The notes under the pieces: model-generated | The model's input: only the letters and a program-made list of their open reading frames with translations | Told to the model about the DNA's origin: nothing | The model's database searches: none | Shown here: positions 23,775-53,241 of the stretch, piece after piece | Position numbering within the stretch: the stretch's first letter is position 1 | Layout of the letters: each line of letters starts with the position of its first letter | NCBI GenBank assembly: GCA_024278835.1 | Contig: JAJRSK010000021.1 | Coordinates: 5,306-69,305, forward strand | Reading direction: 5' to 3' | DNA length: 64,000 bases | Source: Campylobacterales bacterium | GTDB lineage: Bacteria > Campylobacterota > Campylobacteria > Campylobacterales > QNZT01 | Translations under genes and position numbers: made by a program

Positions 23775-24895
23775 TATTTCATCTCCTTTTTCAAAAGAAG
23801 TACACCACTTGTAAAAAATAGGAGTAAAAATCCAACTAAAATAGCCAAATAAAGTATGATTTTAGAAGAGTCTAGCCCCTGACCTATAAGAAAAGTATCG
23901 TAGAGGATATGGTTATAGTACATGACAGGAAACATATGTGCTTCTATGTAGGATTCTCCCTGCATAGAAGAGATAGGCATCAGCATGCCTGAGTAGAGAA
24001 ATCCAGGTAAAATAGTCACAGTAACAGTTAAAACGACAGCGACTATCTGTTTTTTTGTGATGACAGAGATGAGCATACCTATAGATAAGCTTATCATGAT
24101 ATATAATTCACTCGATAACCAATAGAGCATAAAACTCCCACGAAAAGGTACTTCAAACAGATAGAGTGCCCATAAAAGAAGTATAAATATGTTGATTGAA
24201 TGTAGTAAAAAAACAGGAAGTAATTTTGCTAAAAGAAACTCTCCCTTGCTAAGTGGTGAAGCATAAAAGTTAAAAATTGTTCCTTTCTCTTTCTCTCTTA
24301 CAATAAGAAGTGCTGTTAAAATAGCAGGTGCAACTAAAAGTACAAGACCGATAAGTCCAGGGATGATAGCATCCTCATCTCTCATCGCTTGATTAAAAAG
24401 TGTACGAGTATTTAGCACAATCATGCCTTTTTGTTTCATGCCTATAGATGATATGGCTTCATTTGCCGCAGAAAATACCGCCCCTTGTATATAACTCTCT
24501 ATCGTTGTGGCTCGTGTGGGAAATGCTGCGTCTACAAAAACAGCAAGTTCACTTTTTTGTCCATGTAACAAATGCTTCTCAAAAGAGCTAGGGATGATGA
24601 TAATTGCATCGGTTTTTGCTCTTTTTATCTCTCTCAATGCATCATCTTCAGCCATTTGTGTAAGCCTAGCATTGAAGTATTGGCTGTGTTCAAATTTGGA
24701 AATTAACTCTTTTGAGTATTTGCTTTGATCATTGTCTATGATGAGGACTCTAGCATGGGAAACATCCATGCGTATGCCATACCCAAAAAGAAGCACTATC
24801 ATGCTCGGCATAAGATAGACCATCATGATAAGGCGGGTACGAAAAAGTTCGATAAACTCTTTGAGTATATATGCTTTGATACTCAACCATTTCAT
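23774..24895 (-). CDS. ABC-2 type transporter permease
   Basis: Same architecture as 22695-23774. Overlapping stop/start. Confidence 0.8.
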   Translation of the reverse strand: MKWLSIKAYILKEFIELFRTRLIMMVYLMPSMIVLLFGYGIRMDVSHARVLIIDNDQSKYSKELISKFEHSQYFNARLTQMAEDDALREIKRAKTDAIIIIPSSFEKHLLHGQKSELAVFVDAAFPTRATTIESYIQGAVFSAANEAISSIGMKQKGMIVLNTRTLFNQAMRDEDAIIPGLIGLVLLVAPAILTALLIVREKEKGTIFNFYASPLSKGEFLLAKLLPVFLLHSINIFILLLWALYLFEVPFRGSFMLYWLSSELYIMISLSIGMLISVITKKQIVAVVLTVTVTILPGFLYSGMLMPISSMQGESYIEAHMFPVMYYNHILYDTFLIGQGLDSSKIILYLAILVGFLLLFFTSGVLLLKKEMK

Positions 24896-44688: not shown

Positions 44689-46005
44689 TTAATTTTTAAT
44701 ATCTTTCGCAGTAGGCAATAGCCACTGTCTCGAAATAATTCTTTTTGTGATGAGCCTCAGTACTATTTCTAGTATAAATGCTAATACAAATCCTCCAGCG
44801 ATAAAATACCCCACATGTGGAATATGTTTAGAAGTATACATCAGCGCCAAAATAATAGCAATGACTATCGTCAATATAGCAAGTACGACGAACACTTTTG
44901 ATGCACCAGTTTTTTCAATCTTAAAAAGATGTCCTATATGGACAAGTGCGTGGATAAAAAGTATAGATATTGAACCGATGGCGGCGATTTCATCTAACTT
45001 AAAAAAGAGTACAAATAGGATGATAAAGAGTGTACTGATGATTAACCCCTCACTACTGTGCCAGACATTTCTCTCGTAGGCTGCAGGCAATTCACCGTTT
45101 TTTGCCATCTGATAAGTAACATTGGTGACTGCGTAAAGATTTGCATTGATAGAGGAAGCAGTTGAGATGAGTGCTGCTAGCGCCATGATGGTAAATCCCA
45201 CCTGACCAAACGCAGGTTTTGCTGCCTGGGCTAGTGCATAATCTTGTGCTTTGATGATTTCATCCAATGAAAGATTTCCAAAAACGGCAAAAGTCACAGC
45301 CACATAAAGCACCATTACGAAGCCAATGGAGATAAACATGGCTTTTAACATAGTCTCTGATGGATTAGCCATATCTTCTGCGGTGTTTGTGATAACACGA
45401 AACCCCTCATATGCAAAAAAAGTTAGTGCAATAGAAGAAAAAACATTCATCACAGGTGGGGCATCTTTGAGTGCTAAAAGTTCTGGTTTTATATAAAAGA
45501 AGACAGTTACCGTAAAGATGATGATGATTGAAAGTTTGATAATCACTATGATATTTTCACTTCTTGCAATGGATGAACTTCCTGATAGATTAATAAGCAC
45601 AAAAAAAAGAAGTATCAAAACACTATAGGTATTTGCCCAAAACAGAGAGTACGACCCCATCATCATAGAGGCGTACGTACCAAATGTTTTAGCCACCATC
45701 GCAATAGCCACCATCGCAGAAAGATAAAATAAAACTGACATAGAACCAGAAAAAATACCTTCCCCATAACCTTGTACTAAATACTCTACAATTCCACCAC
45801 GGCTAGGATAGGTTGAAGCTAATTTGGCAAGAGAATAGCCACTAAGAAGTGCGATAATACCTCCTAACAAAAAAGATATCCATACTAAATTACCAGCAAT
45901 CGCCCCAGCTTCTCCAAGCAGTACAAAGATGCCTGCCCCAACCATAGAACCAATACCTAAAAAGACAGCACTCCAGAGCCCAAAAGCTTTTTGATTTTTT
46001 TGCAT
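44689..46005 (-). CDS. APC-superfamily amino acid permease
   Basis: GIGSMVGAGIFVLLGEA motif and 12-TM profile. The ATG at 46005 lies 1 nt after the HdeD-like stop. Confidence 0.8.
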   Translation of the reverse strand: MQKNQKAFGLWSAVFLGIGSMVGAGIFVLLGEAGAIAGNLVWISFLLGGIIALLSGYSLAKLASTYPSRGGIVEYLVQGYGEGIFSGSMSVLFYLSAMVAIAMVAKTFGTYASMMMGSYSLFWANTYSVLILLFFVLINLSGSSSIARSENIIVIIKLSIIIIFTVTVFFYIKPELLALKDAPPVMNVFSSIALTFFAYEGFRVITNTAEDMANPSETMLKAMFISIGFVMVLYVAVTFAVFGNLSLDEIIKAQDYALAQAAKPAFGQVGFTIMALAALISTASSINANLYAVTNVTYQMAKNGELPAAYERNVWHSSEGLIISTLFIILFVLFFKLDEIAAIGSISILFIHALVHIGHLFKIEKTGASKVFVVLAILTIVIAIILALMYTSKHIPHVGYFIAGGFVLAFILEIVLRLITKRIISRQWLLPTAKDIKN

Positions 46006-46006
46006 A

Positions 46007-46551
46007 TTATTTAGCCATTTTTGACCACATTGAGCCACCTATCAAGAGTGCTATCCCGTCAAAAAAGAGGCTTATGCCCACAAAAAGTCCGACAAGGTAC
46101 ATAGAACTAAATGGCCAATTTATCAAAAAGAGAACACCAAGACCAAAGGAGAGAAGGGCATTAATCACCCACATAATCCATCCTCTATCTGGATACATTG
46201 TCGAAGCCAGTCCAAATCCTGCAAAAGCATCCATAAAGAAATAGATAGCCAACAAGAGTCCTATCGTACCCACACCACTTAGAGGATAAAACAACATGAA
46301 AGTGCCACCCCAACTAGAATAAAACTTTTAAGCCACCCTAACCAGTCACTTTTATCTGTGATATAGGTAAAATACCCAGCCATCACACCTGCAAAAATCA
46401 TAAGATAGGTGACAAAAACTTCCGTCGCCAATGTCATATAGATAGGATAAATAATCCCTATCAACCCTAGTATGATAAATATTACACCCGAAATTTTGGC
46501 ATATTTTCCGAACTTTTCAAAAATCTCTTCACCCTTTGGATAACTCCACAT
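46007..46551 (-). pseudogene. HdeD/DUF308-like membrane protein split by a frameshift
   Basis: Two overlapping ORFs (46279-46551 and 46007-46297) together reconstitute one DUF308-repeat protein. The frames switch within 46279-46297. Confidence 0.6.
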
Positions 46552-46606
46552 AGTAAATCTCCTAAATTTTATTTGTGAAATTGTAACAAAGAGTGAAAAT
46601 ATATTT

Positions 46607-46622
46607 TGCAACTTAAGTGGCA
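46607..46622 (-). promoter_or_regulatory. Crp/Fnr-type box (minus read TGCCACTTAAGTTGCA) upstream of HdeD-like/APC
   Basis: 21 nt upstream of TACAAT (46585-46580). An RBS TAGGAG precedes the ATG at 46551. Confidence 0.6.
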
Positions 46623-46702
46623 TAATGATTGAACCCTCTGAAAAACTTCTCATCCGAACAACCTCTGCAATGGAAGGGTCAAAATTTTGTAGGAATTTTA
46701 AG

Positions 46703-48004
46703 TTAAATACTTAAACGATTCATCCTTGCATAACCCCAAGCACCGAGTCCAAGAATAGTGTAGAGTATCATGATAAAAAGTAACTGTTCACGATCGCTTT
46801 GATACTCATAATACAAAATCAAAACGGTTCCCACCAAGAGTCCTAGCATGGAGAATATAGTAATCCATGTTGAAGAGTTAGTTCTTTTTCTGATTTTGAA
46901 ATTAGCAACAGCCATTAAAAATGAGACGAGTAAAAAGGTGATACTTCCAAATTCCAGAATCAACTGTAATCCGCCCATGGCTATCAACAAAGAAGCGATA
47001 GCCGCCATGGCAGTGATGGCTGTTTTGGGAATGCCACCTTTTCTTTGAGATAAGATTGGTGGTAGGTAACCATCATCTGCGATAGCCGCCATCTGTCTTG
47101 AAGCACCAAATAGCGTACCGTTTATCGCACTACTAGTAGCAAGAATCGCACCAAATATGACAAGATTTCTACCTAAATCTCCCATGATGTCTTCTGCACC
47201 AGCGGCTAAGGCATACTCTTTATTTTTGATTAAGTCCTCTGCTGGGATGGCTAAAACCGCACTTAAAGCAATGATAAAATAAATCATAGCCACTAAAACA
47301 ATCGCTGAATATATAGCTCTAGGGATATTGATATCAGGATTTTCCATCTCATTAACTGCGTTGATGACAAGTTGAAAACCTTCATAGGCAACAAAGGTGA
47401 CGGAAGAGACAATCAGGATACTCATTAGTGGCGTAGCGTGAAAATCTTTTTGCATGATAGTCGAAAAAGTCGTGAAATCTGTTTTGGCATAGTAGATAAG
47501 TGCCATAGAAATGATAAATAAAATGACTAGCTTAGCGTATACCATGATATCTTCGATTTTTCCCATGCCCTTAACACTCCAAAGGTTGATAAAGGCAAAA
47601 AGCCAGATGATAATGATGGCGATGACTTTTCGAAGCACTTCACTATCTGCAAATGCAAATCCACTAATGCCATAAGAAGAGAATGTATAGGCATAGAGAG
47701 AAAGGGTGCTGATATAACCAAAGATGGTAAACCAGCCGATGAATGAAGCAGCCATATGTGAGGAGGGATAGGTGCGTTTATAAAAGGCATAAGTCGCCCC
47801 TTCATCCTTGTAGTAGACGCCTAGCTTTACATAGGAATAAGCAGCAAACCAAGCAACAACTCCACCCAAAGCAATGGCAAATGGTGCAAGTCCTCCCACC
47901 ATAGAGACTGATATCCCCAATACTGTAAATATCCCGCCACCTACCATACCGCCAATAGCAATAGCGATGAGTTCTTTTAATCCGAGGTTTTTTTTATTTT
48001 GCAT
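46703..48004 (-). CDS. APC-superfamily amino acid permease
   Basis: GGMVGGGIFTVLG motif and 12-TM profile. Confidence 0.8.
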   Translation of the reverse strand: MQNKKNLGLKELIAIAIGGMVGGGIFTVLGISVSMVGGLAPFAIALGGVVAWFAAYSYVKLGVYYKDEGATYAFYKRTYPSSHMAASFIGWFTIFGYISTLSLYAYTFSSYGISGFAFADSEVLRKVIAIIIIWLFAFINLWSVKGMGKIEDIMVYAKLVILFIISMALIYYAKTDFTTFSTIMQKDFHATPLMSILIVSSVTFVAYEGFQLVINAVNEMENPDINIPRAIYSAIVLVAMIYFIIALSAVLAIPAEDLIKNKEYALAAGAEDIMGDLGRNLVIFGAILATSSAINGTLFGASRQMAAIADDGYLPPILSQRKGGIPKTAITAMAAIASLLIAMGGLQLILEFGSITFLLVSFLMAVANFKIRKRTNSSTWITIFSMLGLLVGTVLILYYEYQSDREQLLFIMILYTILGLGAWGYARMNRLSI

Positions 48005-48039: not shown

Positions 48040-49281
48040 TTAGGTCTGTTTTATATTTTTAAGTTGCAAACTAAGATATAAACTCAAAAGCAAAAGTCCA
48101 ATGGTCAGTAGATAGATAAAAGTATAGCTTTGTACAAGGGTTAGTATGAGACCTCCCAAGATAGGAAAAAAGAGTCCTAAGGAAGTAATATTGACTTGTA
48201 ATGCTGCATATACTGGACGTTTTTCTTCTGGTGCTATCTCTATGACTAAGTTCATATCACTTATCTTAAATCCGTCAAATGCTATACCAAAAAGTAAAAA
48301 GATAAGAGCATAGGTATAAACATTATGGGCAAAAAGTGCGATGACAAAAGCCGAAATCATAAAAAGTAGACTTAGTGTTAGCATCAATTCATAGTTGTGA
48401 ATTCTTCTCCATAACAAAGTACTGCCTATGATGCTTCCTATCATTTGAATGGTGATAAATCCACCAAGCATCCATCCTGTAAGTGTAAAGGATTCATTGG
48501 CGTTTAGGATGACAAAAGGCATGGCTAAAAAGTAGCTATATCCTAATAATATGACGATGATTTGTTGTTTAAGTCGCTTGTCACTTTTTAGTAGTTTTAT
48601 GGAATTTTTGACAAATAGCGTAAAGCTTTTTTCTTTTTTAGAGACATTAGTTTTGATAGGCTCCTCAATAGTCACAAATGTTGCAAATCCTATCGCCATA
48701 AGTAAACTACTGATGATAAAAAGATAAGCATAATTATCGGGTGCTTCAAAAATACTCAGTACATATCCTGCGATGCCTCCACTGATGATAGATGCGATAG
48801 ACCCAGCGATTTGTCTGTTTGCCATGGTTCTTCCACGATATTTTTTAGTAAAAAGTTTTGCTTGAAGTTCTTTAAAATAGATAGCACCAAATCCCGCGGT
48901 AAAGGAGAAGAAAAAGAGTCCCAAACCTATAAAAAAAAGCGTTAAAGTTTTGTTTTCATCTCCCAAATATAAAATACTCACACCAATGAGTAACCAACTA
49001 AGAAATCGAAAGAAAAATACCTTTTTAAAATAAGGAATAACCCGTTGATATCCTTGTGCGTAAAAAGCAGCATAGAGTTGTACCACAACAGCCCCACCGC
49101 GGAGTAAGGAAGCAAATATACCAACGATGATGACACTATCACTAAAGTGATGCACCATCAGAGGTAGTATGGTTGAAGGCTCTGCTACCGTGATGGCAAG
49201 AGAGAGAAAAAATGCGTGAATAACATTCTTTGTGTTATTTTTTGGATTGTCTACTTTATACATTATAGTGTTTTTATCCAA
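48040..49281 (-). CDS. MFS transporter
   Basis: 12-TM profile with a central loop. The start overlaps the end of the cytochrome gene. Confidence 0.7.
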   Translation of the reverse strand: MDKNTIMYKVDNPKNNTKNVIHAFFLSLAITVAEPSTILPLMVHHFSDSVIIVGIFASLLRGGAVVVQLYAAFYAQGYQRVIPYFKKVFFFRFLSWLLIGVSILYLGDENKTLTLFFIGLGLFFFSFTAGFGAIYFKELQAKLFTKKYRGRTMANRQIAGSIASIISGGIAGYVLSIFEAPDNYAYLFIISSLLMAIGFATFVTIEEPIKTNVSKKEKSFTLFVKNSIKLLKSDKRLKQQIIVILLGYSYFLAMPFVILNANESFTLTGWMLGGFITIQMIGSIIGSTLLWRRIHNYELMLTLSLLFMISAFVIALFAHNVYTYALIFLLFGIAFDGFKISDMNLVIEIAPEEKRPVYAALQVNITSLGLFFPILGGLILTLVQSYTFIYLLTIGLLLLSLYLSLQLKNIKQT

Positions 49282-49955
49282 GCAATTAGTGTTTCAATAT
49301 CTGCATCATTTATTTTTTTAAAAGGTGGCATCATTGCTTTTTCAAACTCTTTCCAAGTCCCTTTACTACCTTCTTTAATTACCTTTTTTATCTCATTATC
49401 TTCTTTTTGTGCGATAGCTCTAAAGGATGGACCTGTTTTTGGTTTAACCTTATCATGACAGTTAAAACAACCATTGGCAGTTGCTAGCTGTTCTCCCTTT
49501 GGCAAGGCATCAAATTTTGCTTTTTTTTGCATCTGTTTTAAGAATTTATTTTGATCATAATAGTCATATACATAGGTAGCAATGGCGGCTAACTCAGCTT
49601 CTGTCACCTTTCCCTTTTGAGATGGCATCAAGCCATAGCTTTTGAGACTCTCTTCATCACAAAAAGATTTTTCTTTGGATGGATGGAGTACAAAGTCTTG
49701 AAAAAAGGCGATAAATTTTGGTTTTTTATCACTAGGTGTTTTGACCTTCATAAAATCTTTGACATGAAAGGCCACTGCCATCATCGGTGGCGCTTTTTCG
49801 TCTTCATAAGTTTTTGGTGGCATGGCAAGGTTGTGGCAAGAGGCACACTTTTTTTGCACTAAGTTTGCACCGTTATATTTTACCTTCGGTTGTGATGAAC
49901 AGGCACTTAGCCCTAAGAGCACTATGCATGATACGATGGGTGTTAAATATTTCAT
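49263..49955 (-). CDS. Di-haem c-type cytochrome lipoprotein
   Basis: Lipobox LGLSAC and two CxxCH motifs (CASCH, CFNCH). Confidence 0.75.
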   Translation of the reverse strand: MKYLTPIVSCIVLLGLSACSSQPKVKYNGANLVQKKCASCHNLAMPPKTYEDEKAPPMMAVAFHVKDFMKVKTPSDKKPKFIAFFQDFVLHPSKEKSFCDEESLKSYGLMPSQKGKVTEAELAAIATYVYDYYDQNKFLKQMQKKAKFDALPKGEQLATANGCFNCHDKVKPKTGPSFRAIAQKEDNEIKKVIKEGSKGTWKEFEKAMMPPFKKINDADIETLIAWIKTL

Positions 49956-49966
49956 TTAGATACTCC

Positions 49967-50311
49967 TTAAAATAGGTTTTTGACCTTATCCATTAATCCT
50001 GCTTTTTTTTCTTTGGCTTCTTCCTCTTCTTTGTAACAACCCTCTGGAAGACTATTTTCTGGTGTGCCATCTACATTTATCACTTCTAATTCAGGGTGAA
50101 TTAACACTCTTAACTCTTTTTGTACTACCATTTTGGTAGTCATCAAGCTCATAGAACAACCACCACAAGCACCTGTCAATGTGATGTATACTTTACTATC
50201 TTTTACACCTAGTAAATTGATTCCTCCACCATGTGATTTTACATATTCGCTGGTTTTGGGTAAGTTGTGTTTAACGGCTCCGTAAATCTCTTCATCTGAA
50301 AATGGCATCAT
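49967..50311 (-). CDS. NifU-like (C-terminal Nfu-type) Fe-S cluster scaffold domain protein
   Basis: HGGGINLLGV...LTGACGGCSMS block typical of the Nfu/NifU C-terminal domain. Confidence 0.75.
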   Translation of the reverse strand: MMPFSDEEIYGAVKHNLPKTSEYVKSHGGGINLLGVKDSKVYITLTGACGGCSMSLMTTKMVVQKELRVLIHPELEVINVDGTPENSLPEGCYKEEEEAKEKKAGLMDKVKNLF

Positions 50312-50817
50312 ATTTTTTTCCTTTTATTTTGTATAAATCTGTTGTCAGACTTTTTTTTGCTGACTTCTTCTAAGCTGGCTTTCATCCAACCTGATTTGAC
50401 TTCTCCATCTACTTTGTCAAAGTTTTCGATGTAGGGTTTGATATCTAAAAGAGGGGTACCATCGAGTATATCTACCCCTTTGATCGTAACGATATTTTCT
50501 TCTACTTTGACAAGTTCTACAACTGAAAGACCGATGCTGTTTGGATGCATCGGTGTTCTTGTCGAAAAGACACCTCTTGGCGTGTTCGTCATATCATTGA
50601 AAGGTATGACACTAAGTTTTGGCTCTTTTACCTCATGAAAATGGTAGATAAGGTAAACATGAGAAAAACCATCTAAGTCTTTCAACCCTTCTTGAAACTC
50701 TTCTGCAAATTCAATCGTGGCATATGTTTCTTGTGCCCCTTTTGGCTGTACAGGCATGTTGACTAACTCACAAAAGGGAGAGCAAATAGTTGCAATGGGT
50801 GTTAATGTAATATGCAC
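50308..50817 (-). CDS. trmO: TsaA/TrmO-family SAM-dependent methyltransferase
   Basis: RTPMHPNSIGLSVVELV...GVDILDGTPLLDIKPY block. Confidence 0.75.
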   Translation of the reverse strand: MHITLTPIATICSPFCELVNMPVQPKGAQETYATIEFAEEFQEGLKDLDGFSHVYLIYHFHEVKEPKLSVIPFNDMTNTPRGVFSTRTPMHPNSIGLSVVELVKVEENIVTIKGVDILDGTPLLDIKPYIENFDKVDGEVKSGWMKASLEEVSKKKSDNRFIQNKRKKI

Positions 50818-50821
50818 TTTT

Positions 50822-51196
50822 TTACCTATTATGATGTTCTCTTTGATGATTTTTAACTATGTCACTAGCATTGGTGTCATCGACGATGGTTAATGTTTCT
50901 GCTTCATATTTTTCTATCAAAGTATCTAATTGGATTCTCTCATCACCGGCATAAAAAATGGTGATTCTTCCATCTTCTGTTATCATCTGATAAGGTGGCG
51001 CACTGATGTTTTGGATGATAAGAGAGTTCACACCATGTTGTAACAACCAGGCTACGACATTTGAACCACCCTCTGCTTCATTTTTTTCAATGCTTACTTT
51101 GCCATTTTCTACAAAAGCAAACCACTTGGCTTTGCCAAAAAGTGGTGCTACTGCTGGATTTTCTTTGTTTGTTTTTACTGGTATTGCTATTTTCAT
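50822..51196 (-). CDS. NifB/NifX-family (dinitrogenase Fe-Mo cofactor-binding fold) protein
   Basis: MKIAIPV...FGKAKWFAFV... pattern of the NifX/NifB-associated family. Confidence 0.65.
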   Translation of the reverse strand: MKIAIPVKTNKENPAVAPLFGKAKWFAFVENGKVSIEKNEAEGGSNVVAWLLQHGVNSLIIQNISAPPYQMITEDGRITIFYAGDERIQLDTLIEKYEAETLTIVDDTNASDIVKNHQREHHNR

Positions 51197-51210
51197 TTTT
51201 TCTCCCTATT

Positions 51211-51498
51211 TTATTGTAGTTTTGTTATCGAAATCGCCTTGTTATGAAGCAAAGCATCCGAAATCTTTTTGTGTGCACTCTCAATCAATCTTGAAAAAGT
51301 GGTTCGTGATATCCCCATACGATCTGCACACTCTTGTTGATACAATCCTTCAAAGTCACTCAGTCTTATCGCTTCCATCTCATCCACGCCCAAAATCATT
51401 TTCTCCAATGAAGTTCTGCGTACCCCACATGGTTTAAAGCAGACCTTGGAATGATCTTTTTCGATGTTCCGAGTGAGTTTTTTTCTTCCTGATTGCAT
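51211..51498 (-). CDS. DUF134 (UPF0251) predicted DNA-binding protein
   Basis: FKPCGV ... EAIRLSDFEGLYQQECADRMGISRTTFSRLIESAHKKISDAL. The ATG at 51498 lies 7 nt after AAGGAG. Confidence 0.75.
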   Translation of the reverse strand: MQSGRKKLTRNIEKDHSKVCFKPCGVRRTSLEKMILGVDEMEAIRLSDFEGLYQQECADRMGISRTTFSRLIESAHKKISDALLHNKAISITKLQ

Positions 51499-51518
51499 CA
51501 ACTTACTCCTTGAGTTAT

Positions 51519-51572
51519 GAACATATGTTCAAATATAGACCATATTATAACGAACATATGTTCACAAGTCAA
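51519..51572 (-). promoter_or_regulatory. Near-consensus promoter with two GAACATATGTTC operators upstream of the DUF134 operon
   Basis: Minus strand: TTGACT (51572-51567), 17-nt spacer, TATAAT (51549-51544). Perfect 12-bp palindromes lie in the spacer (51552-51563) and just downstream of the expected TSS (51519-51530). Confidence 0.65.
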
Positions 51573-51658
51573 GTTTTATTATAATTATAATAATCATAGG
51601 TAAAGTAAAGATATATTACATGAGTTACTATTTGTTATAATGTTACAAAGGAGTTATC

Positions 51659-52474
51659 ATGATAGGTGCGATTCGTAAAGTTCTTGTTGTTTTAAATAGT
51701 TTTGAGAAGATAGATACCATATTAGCAAAAGCCTTGCTGCTCTCATCAGAGCAAAATGCTGGATTGGAAGTGCTTTATGTACACGAAGAACCTATGTTTG
51801 ATGTGCCTGAGTATTTTTTATCTGAACAAAGTTCTAGTATAGATAAGGCAAAAGTTAAAAAAGAGATACAAGAGAAACTTTTGGCACTGGGGAGTGAACG
51901 TAAACATGCGATATTGGTCTTTATCAATGATACCGTTGATAGGGTGTTAGAGCAGCTAGAAGAGCACAATCACACCCTGATAGTCACTTGCTATCATGAT
52001 AAGATAACAGAGAGGATGCTTAAGCGTAGTGATGCCTCTATGTTGGTGATAAAAGAGGATAAAGAGGGCTATGCAAACATCATCATGCCTGTTAATTTAA
52101 GTGAAGATTCCCGCTCTTGTATCGACTTGGCAAAGCGCTTTTTCCCAGATAGTAAGTTGAGGCTTTTGTATGATAACCCCTATCTTTTGTTAAAAGAAGA
52201 TAAAGAGAAACAAAAAGCATTGTTTGAAGCCCTACAAAAAGAGACGCAGCTTGAGGGAAATTATATACAAGAGAAGATTAGCACGGAGCTTGATTTTATC
52301 GGAGAATTATATGCTATCGAAAAACATTTGGCTGCGTTTATCAATGCAGGTAGTTTTGATTTGACTGTTTTGTATACGCATCAGCGCGATTATCTCTTTT
52401 CCAATTCTCTCTCCTTTGCTTTGCTAGGGATGATTGAGAGTGATCTCCTTCTTTTGAGAAGTTTTAATGATTGA
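51659..52474 (+). CDS. Tandem-domain universal stress protein (paralog of 42638-43483)
   Basis: Colinear similarity with the other Usp. An extended -10 TGTTATAAT lies upstream. Confidence 0.7.
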   Translation: MIGAIRKVLVVLNSFEKIDTILAKALLLSSEQNAGLEVLYVHEEPMFDVPEYFLSEQSSSIDKAKVKKEIQEKLLALGSERKHAILVFINDTVDRVLEQLEEHNHTLIVTCYHDKITERMLKRSDASMLVIKEDKEGYANIIMPVNLSEDSRSCIDLAKRFFPDSKLRLLYDNPYLLLKEDKEKQKALFEALQKETQLEGNYIQEKISTELDFIGELYAIEKHLAAFINAGSFDLTVLYTHQRDYLFSNSLSFALLGMIESDLLLLRSFND

Positions 52475-52483
52475 AGATACGGA

Positions 52484-53068
52484 CTAGGTAAGCTGACTCT
52501 TATTTTTGAGTGCCTGTATCTTCTCTTGAAAATCGCTTTCATCTCCATAGACGAGAAAGTCTTTATAGTAGCGGTGTTTATAAGCAATCTTTTTGGCATG
52601 TTTGATAGGACAAAAGTAGAGTTCAGTTTTAGCTGAAATCTCGGCAGCATAGTGCATCAAACCATTAAAGTAAGAGCAGTAGAGGCAGTTAAGTTTCTCG
52701 ATAGGGTTGAGGTAAGCAAGATAGTGGCGGTCAAAGACGATATACTCACTACGCTTGATAAAGTCAAATTTATAAATACGAAATATCACTTGTTGATAAG
52801 TAAAAAGCATCACATCAAAGATAAGGGCTGGAAGTATCATCAGATAGATGAGTGGAGAAGAAAGTAGATGCAAAAAAGGGATATCTTTTAAGTATGCGAT
52901 GACTTTTTTCATCTTTTCTCTTTGTATAGCCAAAATATCTTGCTCAAAATTGACACGACCATTTTTTATTTCATAGGCCATGTGACCCTCTTGCGTTGCT
53001 ATTTCCTCTTTTAGTTTCTCTTCTAAAATTTCTATCTCTTCTAAAATTCTTTTGATTTTTTCGCTCAT
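52484..53068 (-). CDS. Conserved hypothetical membrane protein with Cys/His motif
   Basis: N-terminal coiled coil, two TM segments, C-terminal CLYCSYFNG...YFCPIKHAKK. The start is taken at MSEKIK. Confidence 0.4.
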   Translation of the reverse strand: MSEKIKRILEEIEILEEKLKEEIATQEGHMAYEIKNGRVNFEQDILAIQREKMKKVIAYLKDIPFLHLLSSPLIYLMILPALIFDVMLFTYQQVIFRIYKFDFIKRSEYIVFDRHYLAYLNPIEKLNCLYCSYFNGLMHYAAEISAKTELYFCPIKHAKKIAYKHRYYKDFLVYGDESDFQEKIQALKNKSQLT

Positions 53069-53241
53069 GTAAAATCCCTTCATTAGGTGTAACACTTTTA
53101 CTTAGTATAGTATCATTTAGGTATGCATTTCATGATAAGTTTCCACCATTACCTTCCGATTATAGTATAATATCTATAAATGGACTACACGTCGTGTACA
53201 TGTAGATAATATAGAATTAACGCTCCAAGAAAGGATGATAG

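Follow-up and report, generated by a model that had tools for sequence, protein, structure and literature searches.

DUF134 is among the oldest domains of unknown function, and a locus in 64,000 nucleotides of DNA from a Campylobacterales bacterium (GCA_024278835.1, contig JAJRSK010000021.1, positions 5,306 to 69,305; "the window" denotes this entire stretch) raises the question of what the domain might do. On the minus strand of the window, a DUF134 gene leads an operon behind a promoter that carries two palindromes, called here operators O1 and O2, and the question is whether the DUF134 protein itself reads them. Three independent computational lines, namely phylogenetic footprinting, the covariation of the DUF134 recognition helix with the operator, and the solved structure of a homologue, DeoR, make it likely in our view that this promoter is controlled by the product of its own first gene, a DUF134 (UPF0251) transcription factor.

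Operators, recognition helix, and the DeoR parallel

The hexamers and operators are listed, together with the genes that follow them, in Table 1. O1 occupies the 17-nt spacer between the −35 and −10 hexamers, at about −27 to −14 from the predicted transcription start (about 51537), and O2 lies at about +7 to +20. O1 is identical to O2 (TGAACATATGTTCA) at 13 of 14 positions, and the centers of the two are 33 bp apart, that is, three helical turns, on the same face of the DNA. The 13-mer TGAACATATGTTC, expected 0.02 times in a shuffled window, is found only at O1 and O2; the looser matches at 23930 and 35085 (both with two mismatches), as well as at 51788, are all located within open reading frames (ORFs), the first two in long ones, and were rejected as further operators. 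Only three sites in the whole window, both strands included, match the promoter consensus at 11 or more of its 12 positions, and the DUF134 promoter is one of them. The first-pass annotation had this layout correct to the single base, from the 12-bp palindromes and the 17-nt spacer to the 33-bp distance and the unusual quality of the promoter, and the only amendment is that the symmetry of O2 extends to 14 bp. An RNA element was rejected, since an Rfam search of the promoter region gave no family match and O1 is not transcribed.

A scan with a DUF134 alignment, restricted to one genome per species, yielded 80 loci from more than 10 phyla. The closest relative, L201, was reached through its 99%-identical DUF134, an exact look-up of the DUF134 of the window having given no record. 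Neighboring genes were counted by targeted searches of the loci with hidden Markov models, and greedy clustering of ORFs was dropped, as fusion proteins merged DUF134, NifX-like, and MinD-like proteins into one cluster. The analysis of DUF134 neighborhoods, which had been suggested earlier as a check, revealed that the operator promoter recurs before DUF134 in the loci of Campylobacterota and in other groups. The palindrome or a near variant of it precedes DUF134 in Sulfurovum, Sulfurimonas, Sulfurospirillum, Nautiliaceae, Chromatiaceae, and Methylomirabilis, and a second form, TTGACA-n-TTATG[AG]GCATATGC[CT]TATAAT, is found in the same position in Smithella and other Desulfobacterota, Syntrophorhabdus, Spirochaetota, and WOR-3. 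The palindrome lies across the core promoter of the DUF134 gene and has been conserved along with that gene, the only one for a DNA-binding protein that all loci share.

The strict 12-mer pattern is present in 46 copies in the 7.6 kb upstream of 76 DUF134 genes and in 24 copies in the other 841 kb, which corresponds to a 212-fold enrichment. All but one of the 24 other copies are situated in a promoter context of the TTGACW/operator/TATAAT type, the exception being a copy in L080 with no such context that is apparently placed within a coding region. Some of these copies stand ahead of longer operons that open with a gene other than DUF134 and that in three loci include the genes of cytochrome bd oxidase. 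Others belong to neighboring operons of NifX-like paralogues, MinD-type ATPases with ferredoxin inserts, SLAC1/TehA-like proteins with DUF302, DsbD_2, MFS, and DUF5320. In about 45 loci the promoter matches the consensus at 10 or more of the 12 positions and has a spacer of 17 bp. Counted from the first base of the −10 hexamer, the center of the operator is found at −8 in nearly all Campylobacterota and at −5 in the Smithella clade. A second site, where present, is usually separated from the first one by 22–23 or 33–34 bp, that is, by two or three helical turns. In an alignment of eight Sulfurovum-type promoters, only the block comprising the −35 hexamer (TTGAC[AT]), O1, and the −10 hexamer is invariant.

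The form of the operator follows that of the recognition helix of DUF134. Helices of the type I/V-S-R-x-T-F-[S/T]-R are accompanied by the operator core ACATATGT, and those of the type I/V-S-R-x-T-F-G-R by the core GCATATGC. Counted by half-sites, position ±3.5 of the operator is A:T in 146 cases and G:C in 6 for proteins with F-[S/T/A]-R in the helix, and A:T in none and G:C in 40 for those with F-G-R. Four further DUF134 loci, recovered independently from metagenomes, obey the same rule. An Aminicenantes locus (L045) has a half-site of the A-type (TGGTCATATGTTCA), and a Fibrobacteres locus has a TGGCATATGCCA palindrome without a recognizable promoter of the type described above. Since proline at the other variable position of the helix occurs in both classes, residue 69 (Ser or Thr as opposed to Gly) is the predicted discriminator of specificity. 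If the rule is true, the S69G substitution in DUF134 would shift the preference from ACATATGT to GCATATGC (TGAGCATATGCTCA).

The DUF134 family (PF02001, UPF0251, COG1342) comprises 2,132 clusters at 50% identity (E ≤ 1e-10), and homologues 70–99% identical to the protein of the window are present in Sulfurovum, Sulfurimonas, and other Campylobacterota, which places the source of the window among Sulfurovum-like organisms. A literature search on DUF134, UPF0251, COG1342, PF02001, and IPR002852 returned nothing on function or regulation, and the same was true for DUF5320 and COG1433. The protein encoded in the window contains a helix-turn-helix (HTH) of the sigma-70-region-4/DeoR type (residues about 38–84) with the recognition helix ISRTTFSR, preceded by an N-terminal basic arm with the FKPxG motif, in which FKPCG is invariant. 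The AlphaFold 2 (AF2) model has a predicted local distance difference test score of about 85–97 across residues 31–90, and Foldseek superimposes its confident part (residues 33–91) on sigma-70 region 4 domains, as well as on the DNA-binding domain of Bacillus subtilis DeoR, with root-mean-square deviations below 1 Å. DeoR was also the first match in a profile search of PDB sequences, with about 40% identity over residues 40–78 of DUF134 and the helix ISRPTVSR in the place of ISRTTFSR.

The dimer of DeoR, a member of the SorC family (PDB 7bhy, 8r7y), is bound to the palindrome 5'-TTGAACAAAATTCAA-3', with base-specific contacts made within TTGAACA by Arg34 and Arg39 (PMC11229326). When the expression tag of the deposited chain is allowed for, these residues align with the invariant Arg65 and Arg70 of DUF134. 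O2 of the window reads tTTGAACATATGTTCAta, with the GAACA half-site of the DeoR operator, and at the discriminator position DeoR has a serine, the residue expected under the A-type rule. DeoR is a repressor with an operator that overlaps the promoter, and the operator assigned to DUF134 overlaps its promoter likewise; DUF134 would similarly bind as a dimer to a palindrome of such half-sites. The two systems differ in that the half-sites are one base pair further apart for DUF134 (TTGAA-CATATG-TTCA compared to TTGAA-CAAAA-TTCAA). DeoR also carries a C-terminal sugar-phosphate effector domain through which it forms tetramers, whereas DUF134, with about 95 residues and a distinct N-terminal FKPxG arm, has no SorC domain, and the presumed effector module of DUF134 systems is a separate or fused NifX-like domain.

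In the proposed mechanism, a DUF134 dimer would bind the 14-bp palindrome through its sigma-70-region-4/DeoR-type HTH. As O1 is placed in the spacer of an intrinsically strong TTGACT-17-TATAAT promoter and O2 just past the presumed transcription start, occupancy of O1, cooperatively aided by O2, would exclude RNA polymerase from the promoter. Repression would then cover the genes of DUF134, the NifX-like, TrmO-like, and NifU-like proteins, and cytochrome c, and in the window also the MFS gene and perhaps the APC gene, until some signal releases the repressor. That binding would repress rather than activate is suggested by the positions of the operators and by the optimal 17-bp spacer.

Some observations made beside the operators may be added. 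In two Nautiliaceae loci, L049 and L061, the upstream operator (about −51 relative to the start of DUF134) is shifted from the spacer onto the −35 hexamer (cTTGACATATGTTCA), so that the hexamer and an operator half-site share bases, a notable arrangement for an HTH resembling sigma region 4. Small Gly/Arg/Asn-rich proteins are often encoded directly behind a DUF134 operator, and sometimes between the operator and DUF134 (L005:7688-7948; L028:727-1044; L069:9202-9585; about 5 kb past DUF134 in L073 and L077). Of these proteins, some belong to DUF5320, while others have no match in Pfam. In the window, a divergent Usp-like gene (51659-52474, plus strand) lies 157 bp from the DUF134 start; L201 has retained this neighbor, whereas the 80 other DUF134 loci have not. 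TTCACA-16-AATTAT (9/12, 51561-51588), a weak promoter-like site on the plus strand, has a −35 hexamer that overlaps O1, and for this reason O1 might influence the Usp-like gene too. Just past that gene is an ORF of 203 amino acids (aa) on the minus strand (52484-53095), with no Pfam match at E ≤ 0.01.

Other proteins that could read the palindrome

Several points weigh against DUF134 as the autorepressor. That it binds and represses is an inference, and so is the place of the transcription start. The covariation is mostly split between two big clades, with few independent changes, and its Fisher P-value is not to be taken at face value. O2 is kept in five of the eight aligned Sulfurovum-type promoters and lost in three, so that cooperation of two sites is not universal; since O1 is invariant in the same alignment, O1 is probably the primary site and O2 an auxiliary one. 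The operator is also not specific to DUF134. The palindrome of the window matches the Gram-positive LexA consensus CGAACATATGTTCG, and the operator also contains the SmtB/ArsR core TGAACA-NN-TGTTCA. When metagenomes were scanned for GAACATATGTTC-N9-23-GAACATATGTTC, only 4 of the first 120 double copies were linked to DUF134, the recognizable neighbors of the others being SOS genes of the Firmicutes type, along with many unexplained 22-bp arrays. With so few copies linked to DUF134, the motif alone cannot find DUF134 regulons across bacteria. The designation of DUF134 as an autorepressor in the first-pass annotation is supported by the footprinting, the covariation, and the DeoR homologue, but not by a palindrome private to DUF134; similarly, the search for other copies, proposed there as a check, confirmed that the 13-mer is confined to O1 and O2 in the window, whereas most double copies in metagenomes lie elsewhere than at DUF134.

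Among the alternatives, an activator or dual regulator survives best, and we regard it as unlikely. DUF134 might remodel the spacer in the manner of MerR or, as a mimic of sigma region 4, recruit polymerase. The operator is indeed placed within the spacer, as in activators of the MerR family, the HTH of DUF134 has the fold of sigma-70 region 4, and OrpR, the regulator of related orange-protein (ORP) genes, is an activator (PMC8359166). However, the spacer is 17 bp long, with near-consensus hexamers, both here and in about 45 relatives, compared to 19–20 bp at MerR promoters, DUF134 is not MerR-like, and binding past the start, at the second site, can only impede transcription. Additionally, the strongest promoters in the DUF134 loci are those that carry the operator, as would be expected of strong promoters that a repressor keeps silent.

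It is a good deal less probable that a regulator encoded elsewhere binds the operator and that DUF134 is a passenger. One candidate for such a regulator is a metal sensor of the SmtB/ArsR type, for which the site AATACCTGAACA-GA-TGTTCAAGTATT, with the same 6-2-6 core, has been reported (PMC8790569); the layout is also alike, with one or two inverted repeats near the −10 hexamer and the start and a logic of derepression, and the operon includes transporters and proteins of the metal-cofactor type. SmtB/ArsR regulators are, unlike DUF134, winged-helix proteins of another family, and the outer arms of their 12-2-12 site are only weakly symmetric in the window and are not conserved. A search of the window and of 81 DUF134 loci gave no ArsR/SmtB-like ORF, a soft negative in view of the unvalidated query sequences. 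DUF134, in turn, is the sole DNA-binding gene that the loci share, and it is to DUF134 that both the helix–operator covariation and the DeoR parallel point.

Still less credence can be given to the reading of the palindromes as LexA boxes (SOS, Cheo-type) that would make the operon inducible by DNA damage. The likeness is real: CGAACATATGTTC is a documented LexA box of Staphylococcus aureus (PMC11442139), and double copies in metagenomes adjoin lexA (seven loci), genes for a DinB-like polymerase (seven), and YneA/LysM-like genes (six). LexA operators of the Cheo type share with those of DUF134 the identical core, as well as dual boxes that overlap the promoter and an autoregulated repressor, the latter being proposed for DUF134. 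Yet Epsilonproteobacteria have been reported to be without a LexA orthologue (PMC2390758), and no LexA-like ORF was detected in the window or in the 81 DUF134 loci by a query that had recovered LexA from the metagenome loci. No SOS or DNA-repair gene is present among the downstream genes, and the motif tracks DUF134 into phyla with different operators, covarying with the DUF134 helix. LexA also differs from DUF134 in fold and family, in the SOS genes that it controls, and in its logic of RecA-driven cleavage; the likeness looks like a convergence of operator sequences. Annotation based on motifs calls for caution here, for a single 12-mer serves as a LexA box in Firmicutes and, by prediction, as a DUF134 operator in Campylobacterota.

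The 22-bp arrays form a category of their own. In rumen and gut metagenome contigs (L081, L089, L117, L133, L157, L193, and others), three to four exact copies of GAACATATGTTC follow each other with a strict 22-bp period and variable 10-bp spacers. Neither a DUF134 nor a LexA gene adjoins these arrays (e.g., L117:1395-1472), which could be iterons, multi-box operators, or other elements.

The notion that the palindromes are due to chance or are structural, i.e., a hairpin in the 5' untranslated region (O2 would be transcribed and could fold into a short one) or a restriction-type site (CATATG), can practically be discarded, for two copies of so rare a 13-mer stand 33 bp apart, O1 is in untranscribed spacer DNA, and the cross-phylum conservation is positional, so that this reading is effectively refuted by the conservation data.

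The probable NifX-like partner and the variable operon

Taking DUF134 to be the repressor, one may look for the module that would receive the signal. A NifX-like gene is found directly downstream of DUF134 in 38 of the 81 loci, directly upstream in 8, and within 6 kb, in any position, in 65. When ten representatives of the family with 220–260 aa, drawn from the 150 best matches, were scanned, nine proved to be fusions of an N-terminal DUF134 with a C-terminal Nitro_FeMo-Co domain, in the order that is also the usual order of the genes; the fused genes of L004 and L055 have an operator within their own promoter spacer. The recurrence of these fusions points to a one-component regulator split in two, in which the NifX-like protein, as the partner of DUF134, would bind the effector, a task that falls to the sugar-phosphate domain in DeoR. 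The protein is accordingly better read as a sensor than as an enzyme of a cofactor pathway.

This sensing role and the nature of the signal (redox, metal, or cluster) are the least secure elements of the model. They are suggested by the fusions, by clade-specific His and Cys residues, and by analogy with OrpR, a sigma-54 activator that turns on orange-protein genes at low redox potential by means of an Fe-S cluster (PMC8359166). The ORP clusters of Desulfovibrio vulgaris and the DUF134 regulons have in common stand-alone NifX-like proteins (COG1433), MinD-type ATPases with ferredoxin inserts, and Fe-S carriers of the Mrp type, all of them typical of anaerobes. Since the genes of the regulon overlap those that are controlled in Desulfovibrio by the redox-responsive OrpR, a redox or cluster-related cue is a reasonable guess, though no more than that. 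The regulators themselves are different: OrpR, which senses by a PAS [4Fe-4S] module, is an enhancer-binding activator of the sigma-54 kind, and DUF134 is a small HTH protein at a sigma-70-type promoter and a proposed repressor. No enhancer-binding protein adjoins the operon in the window, and its promoter follows the consensus of sigma-70 and not that of sigma-54. Of the ORP set the window has only the NifX-like member, the MinD-ferredoxin genes being found only in the clusters of its relatives.

Tentatively, and with somewhat more doubt than confidence, we propose that DUF134 and the stand-alone NifX-like protein form a split sensor-repressor, in which the NifX module would bind a ligand related to metal clusters or redox state and thereby set the occupancy of CATATG-core operators by DUF134. 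The ORP-like regulon so controlled would include NifX paralogues, MinD-ferredoxin ATPases, NifU, cytochromes c and bd, and thiol-redox and transport genes. In the DUF134 proteins of the clade comprising Campylobacterota and Chromatiaceae, His16, Cys20, and Cys24 are invariant and Cys57 is nearly so. Speaking against the proposal, other clades have different sets of N- and C-terminal cysteines, the confidence of the AF2 model is low over the N-terminal 30 residues that contain His16, Cys20, and Cys24, so that a metal site is not readable there, and the NifX-like protein of the window has neither a cysteine nor the histidine of the usual HFG motif.

Table 1. Promoter elements of the DUF134 gene in the window and the genes that follow them.
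Feature	Positions	Strand	Remarks
−35 hexamer TTGACT	51572-51567	minus	5/6 consensus match; followed by tgt
Operator O1, TGAACATATGTTCG	51551-51564	–	12-bp perfect palindrome GAACATATGTTC at 51563-51552; followed by gt
−10 hexamer TATAAT	51549-51544	minus	6/6 consensus match; followed by 13 nt
Operator O2, TGAACATATGTTCA	51518-51531	–	perfect 14-bp palindrome; inner GAACATATGTTC at 51530-51519; followed by ataactc
Ribosome-binding site AAGGAG	51511-51506	minus	followed by 7 nt, then ATG at 51498
DUF134/UPF0251 gene	51211-51498	minus	95 aa; candidate autorepressor
NifX-like (Nitro_FeMo-Co) gene	50822-51196	minus	124 aa; probable partner/sensor of DUF134
TrmO/TsaA-like gene	50308-50817	minus	169 aa; accessory member of the operon
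NifU C-terminal-domain (Nfu-type) gene	49967-50311	minus	114 aa; 4-nt overlap with the TrmO-like gene
Di-heme cytochrome c lipoprotein gene	49263-49955	minus	230 aa; CASCH and CFNCH, LSAC lipobox
MFS transporter gene	48040-49263	minus	start codon overlaps the stop of cytochrome c (TAATG)
APC amino-acid permease gene	46703-48004	minus	same strand, 35-nt gap; membership in the operon uncertain

The identities of the genes in the operon, as called in the first-pass annotation, were all confirmed by Pfam and NCBIfam. DUF134 scores 76.9 bits (cut-off 27) over residues 1–92 of 96, essentially its full length, and the NifX-like protein matches Nitro_FeMo-Co with 33.6 bits (cut-off 26.3). The TrmO-like protein has a TrmO_N match and reaches 127.3 bits with the equivalog model TIGR00104 (cut-off 93.25). 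The tight coupling of the genes claimed there holds as well, with intergenic gaps of 14, 4, and 11 nt, a 4-nt overlap, and a junction at 49263 in which the stop of cytochrome c and the MFS start share one base. Because of the last of these features, the MFS gene is probably co-transcribed with that of cytochrome c. No convincing terminator was found between the MFS and APC genes, and since none is clear through 44689-46653 either, the transcription unit has no defined 3' end. The latter stretch, beyond the APC permease and on the same strand, holds two overlapping small membrane-protein ORFs (124 and 96 aa), as well as a second APC-type permease of 449 aa. Two plus-strand ORFs, 51006-51437 and 51061-51219, are antisense to the DUF134 and NifX-like genes and were treated as spurious.

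Comparison with the relatives reveals that the five- to seven-gene unit described previously is not fixed. The operon of L201 (GCA_054040595.1, contig JBPKYR010000045.1, 4895-6636) has the same promoter, O1, and O2, but consists of only four of these genes, namely those of DUF134, the NifX-like protein, NifU, and cytochrome c, and is followed by convergent genes of the ZnuA type. The TrmO-like, MFS, and APC genes, absent from L201, look like recent additions or losses. In other Sulfurovum loci, the operon is extended by TrmO-like, MFS, flavin-reductase-like, metallo-beta-lactamase, or cytochrome bd genes. The NifU-type gene is kept in L201, L005, and L017, and that of cytochrome c in these three, as well as in L021 and L023. 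An MFS gene of the same type occurs in the clusters of relatives in different positions, and the APC permease was found in none of the relatives' clusters examined, the window being its only location. Of the two transporters that had been considered as possible members of the unit, the MFS gene is supported by its overlap with the stop codon of cytochrome c, whereas the membership of the APC gene is uncertain. The TrmO-like gene recurs in the clusters of other relatives, although not in L201; a housekeeping role is made less likely by this absence from the closest relative, and also by the placement of the gene in a regulon of varying content.

A particularly long cluster is present in a metagenome-assembled genome of Sulfurovum (L017:634-12174), where about 11.5 kb on one strand are placed behind a single GCACATATGTGC site. 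It starts with a Gly-rich/NifX-like protein, two MinD-ferredoxin proteins, two NifX-like proteins, and a small membrane protein, which are followed by CydA, CydB, and MFS, and continues with DUF134, NifX-like, TrmO-like, MFS, NifU, cytochrome c, and flavin reductase genes. This cluster suggests that the operon of the window may correspond to the distal half of a larger regulon found elsewhere.

What the locus implies for DUF134

The mechanism proposed here is that of a textbook repressor and its operator, and what appears to be new is the operator, along with the residue predicted to set its specificity, the regulon, and the domain put forward as a sensor. That the operon represents a system for the handling of Fe-S clusters or metals extending to the periplasm, as had been supposed at first, is a conjecture. 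Together, the operator, the residue that would set its recognition, the local regulon, and the candidate sensor provide a first testable function for DUF134. Should DUF134 and the NifX-like protein indeed act as a split sensor and repressor, this would be the first function assigned to DUF134 and would give a regulatory role to the widespread COG1433 domain, in a system that would extend over more than 2,000 clusters of proteins from anaerobes and microaerophiles. Since its regulon overlaps the anaerobe-specific set of orange-protein genes, DUF134 may be the common regulator of such genes outside Desulfovibrio.

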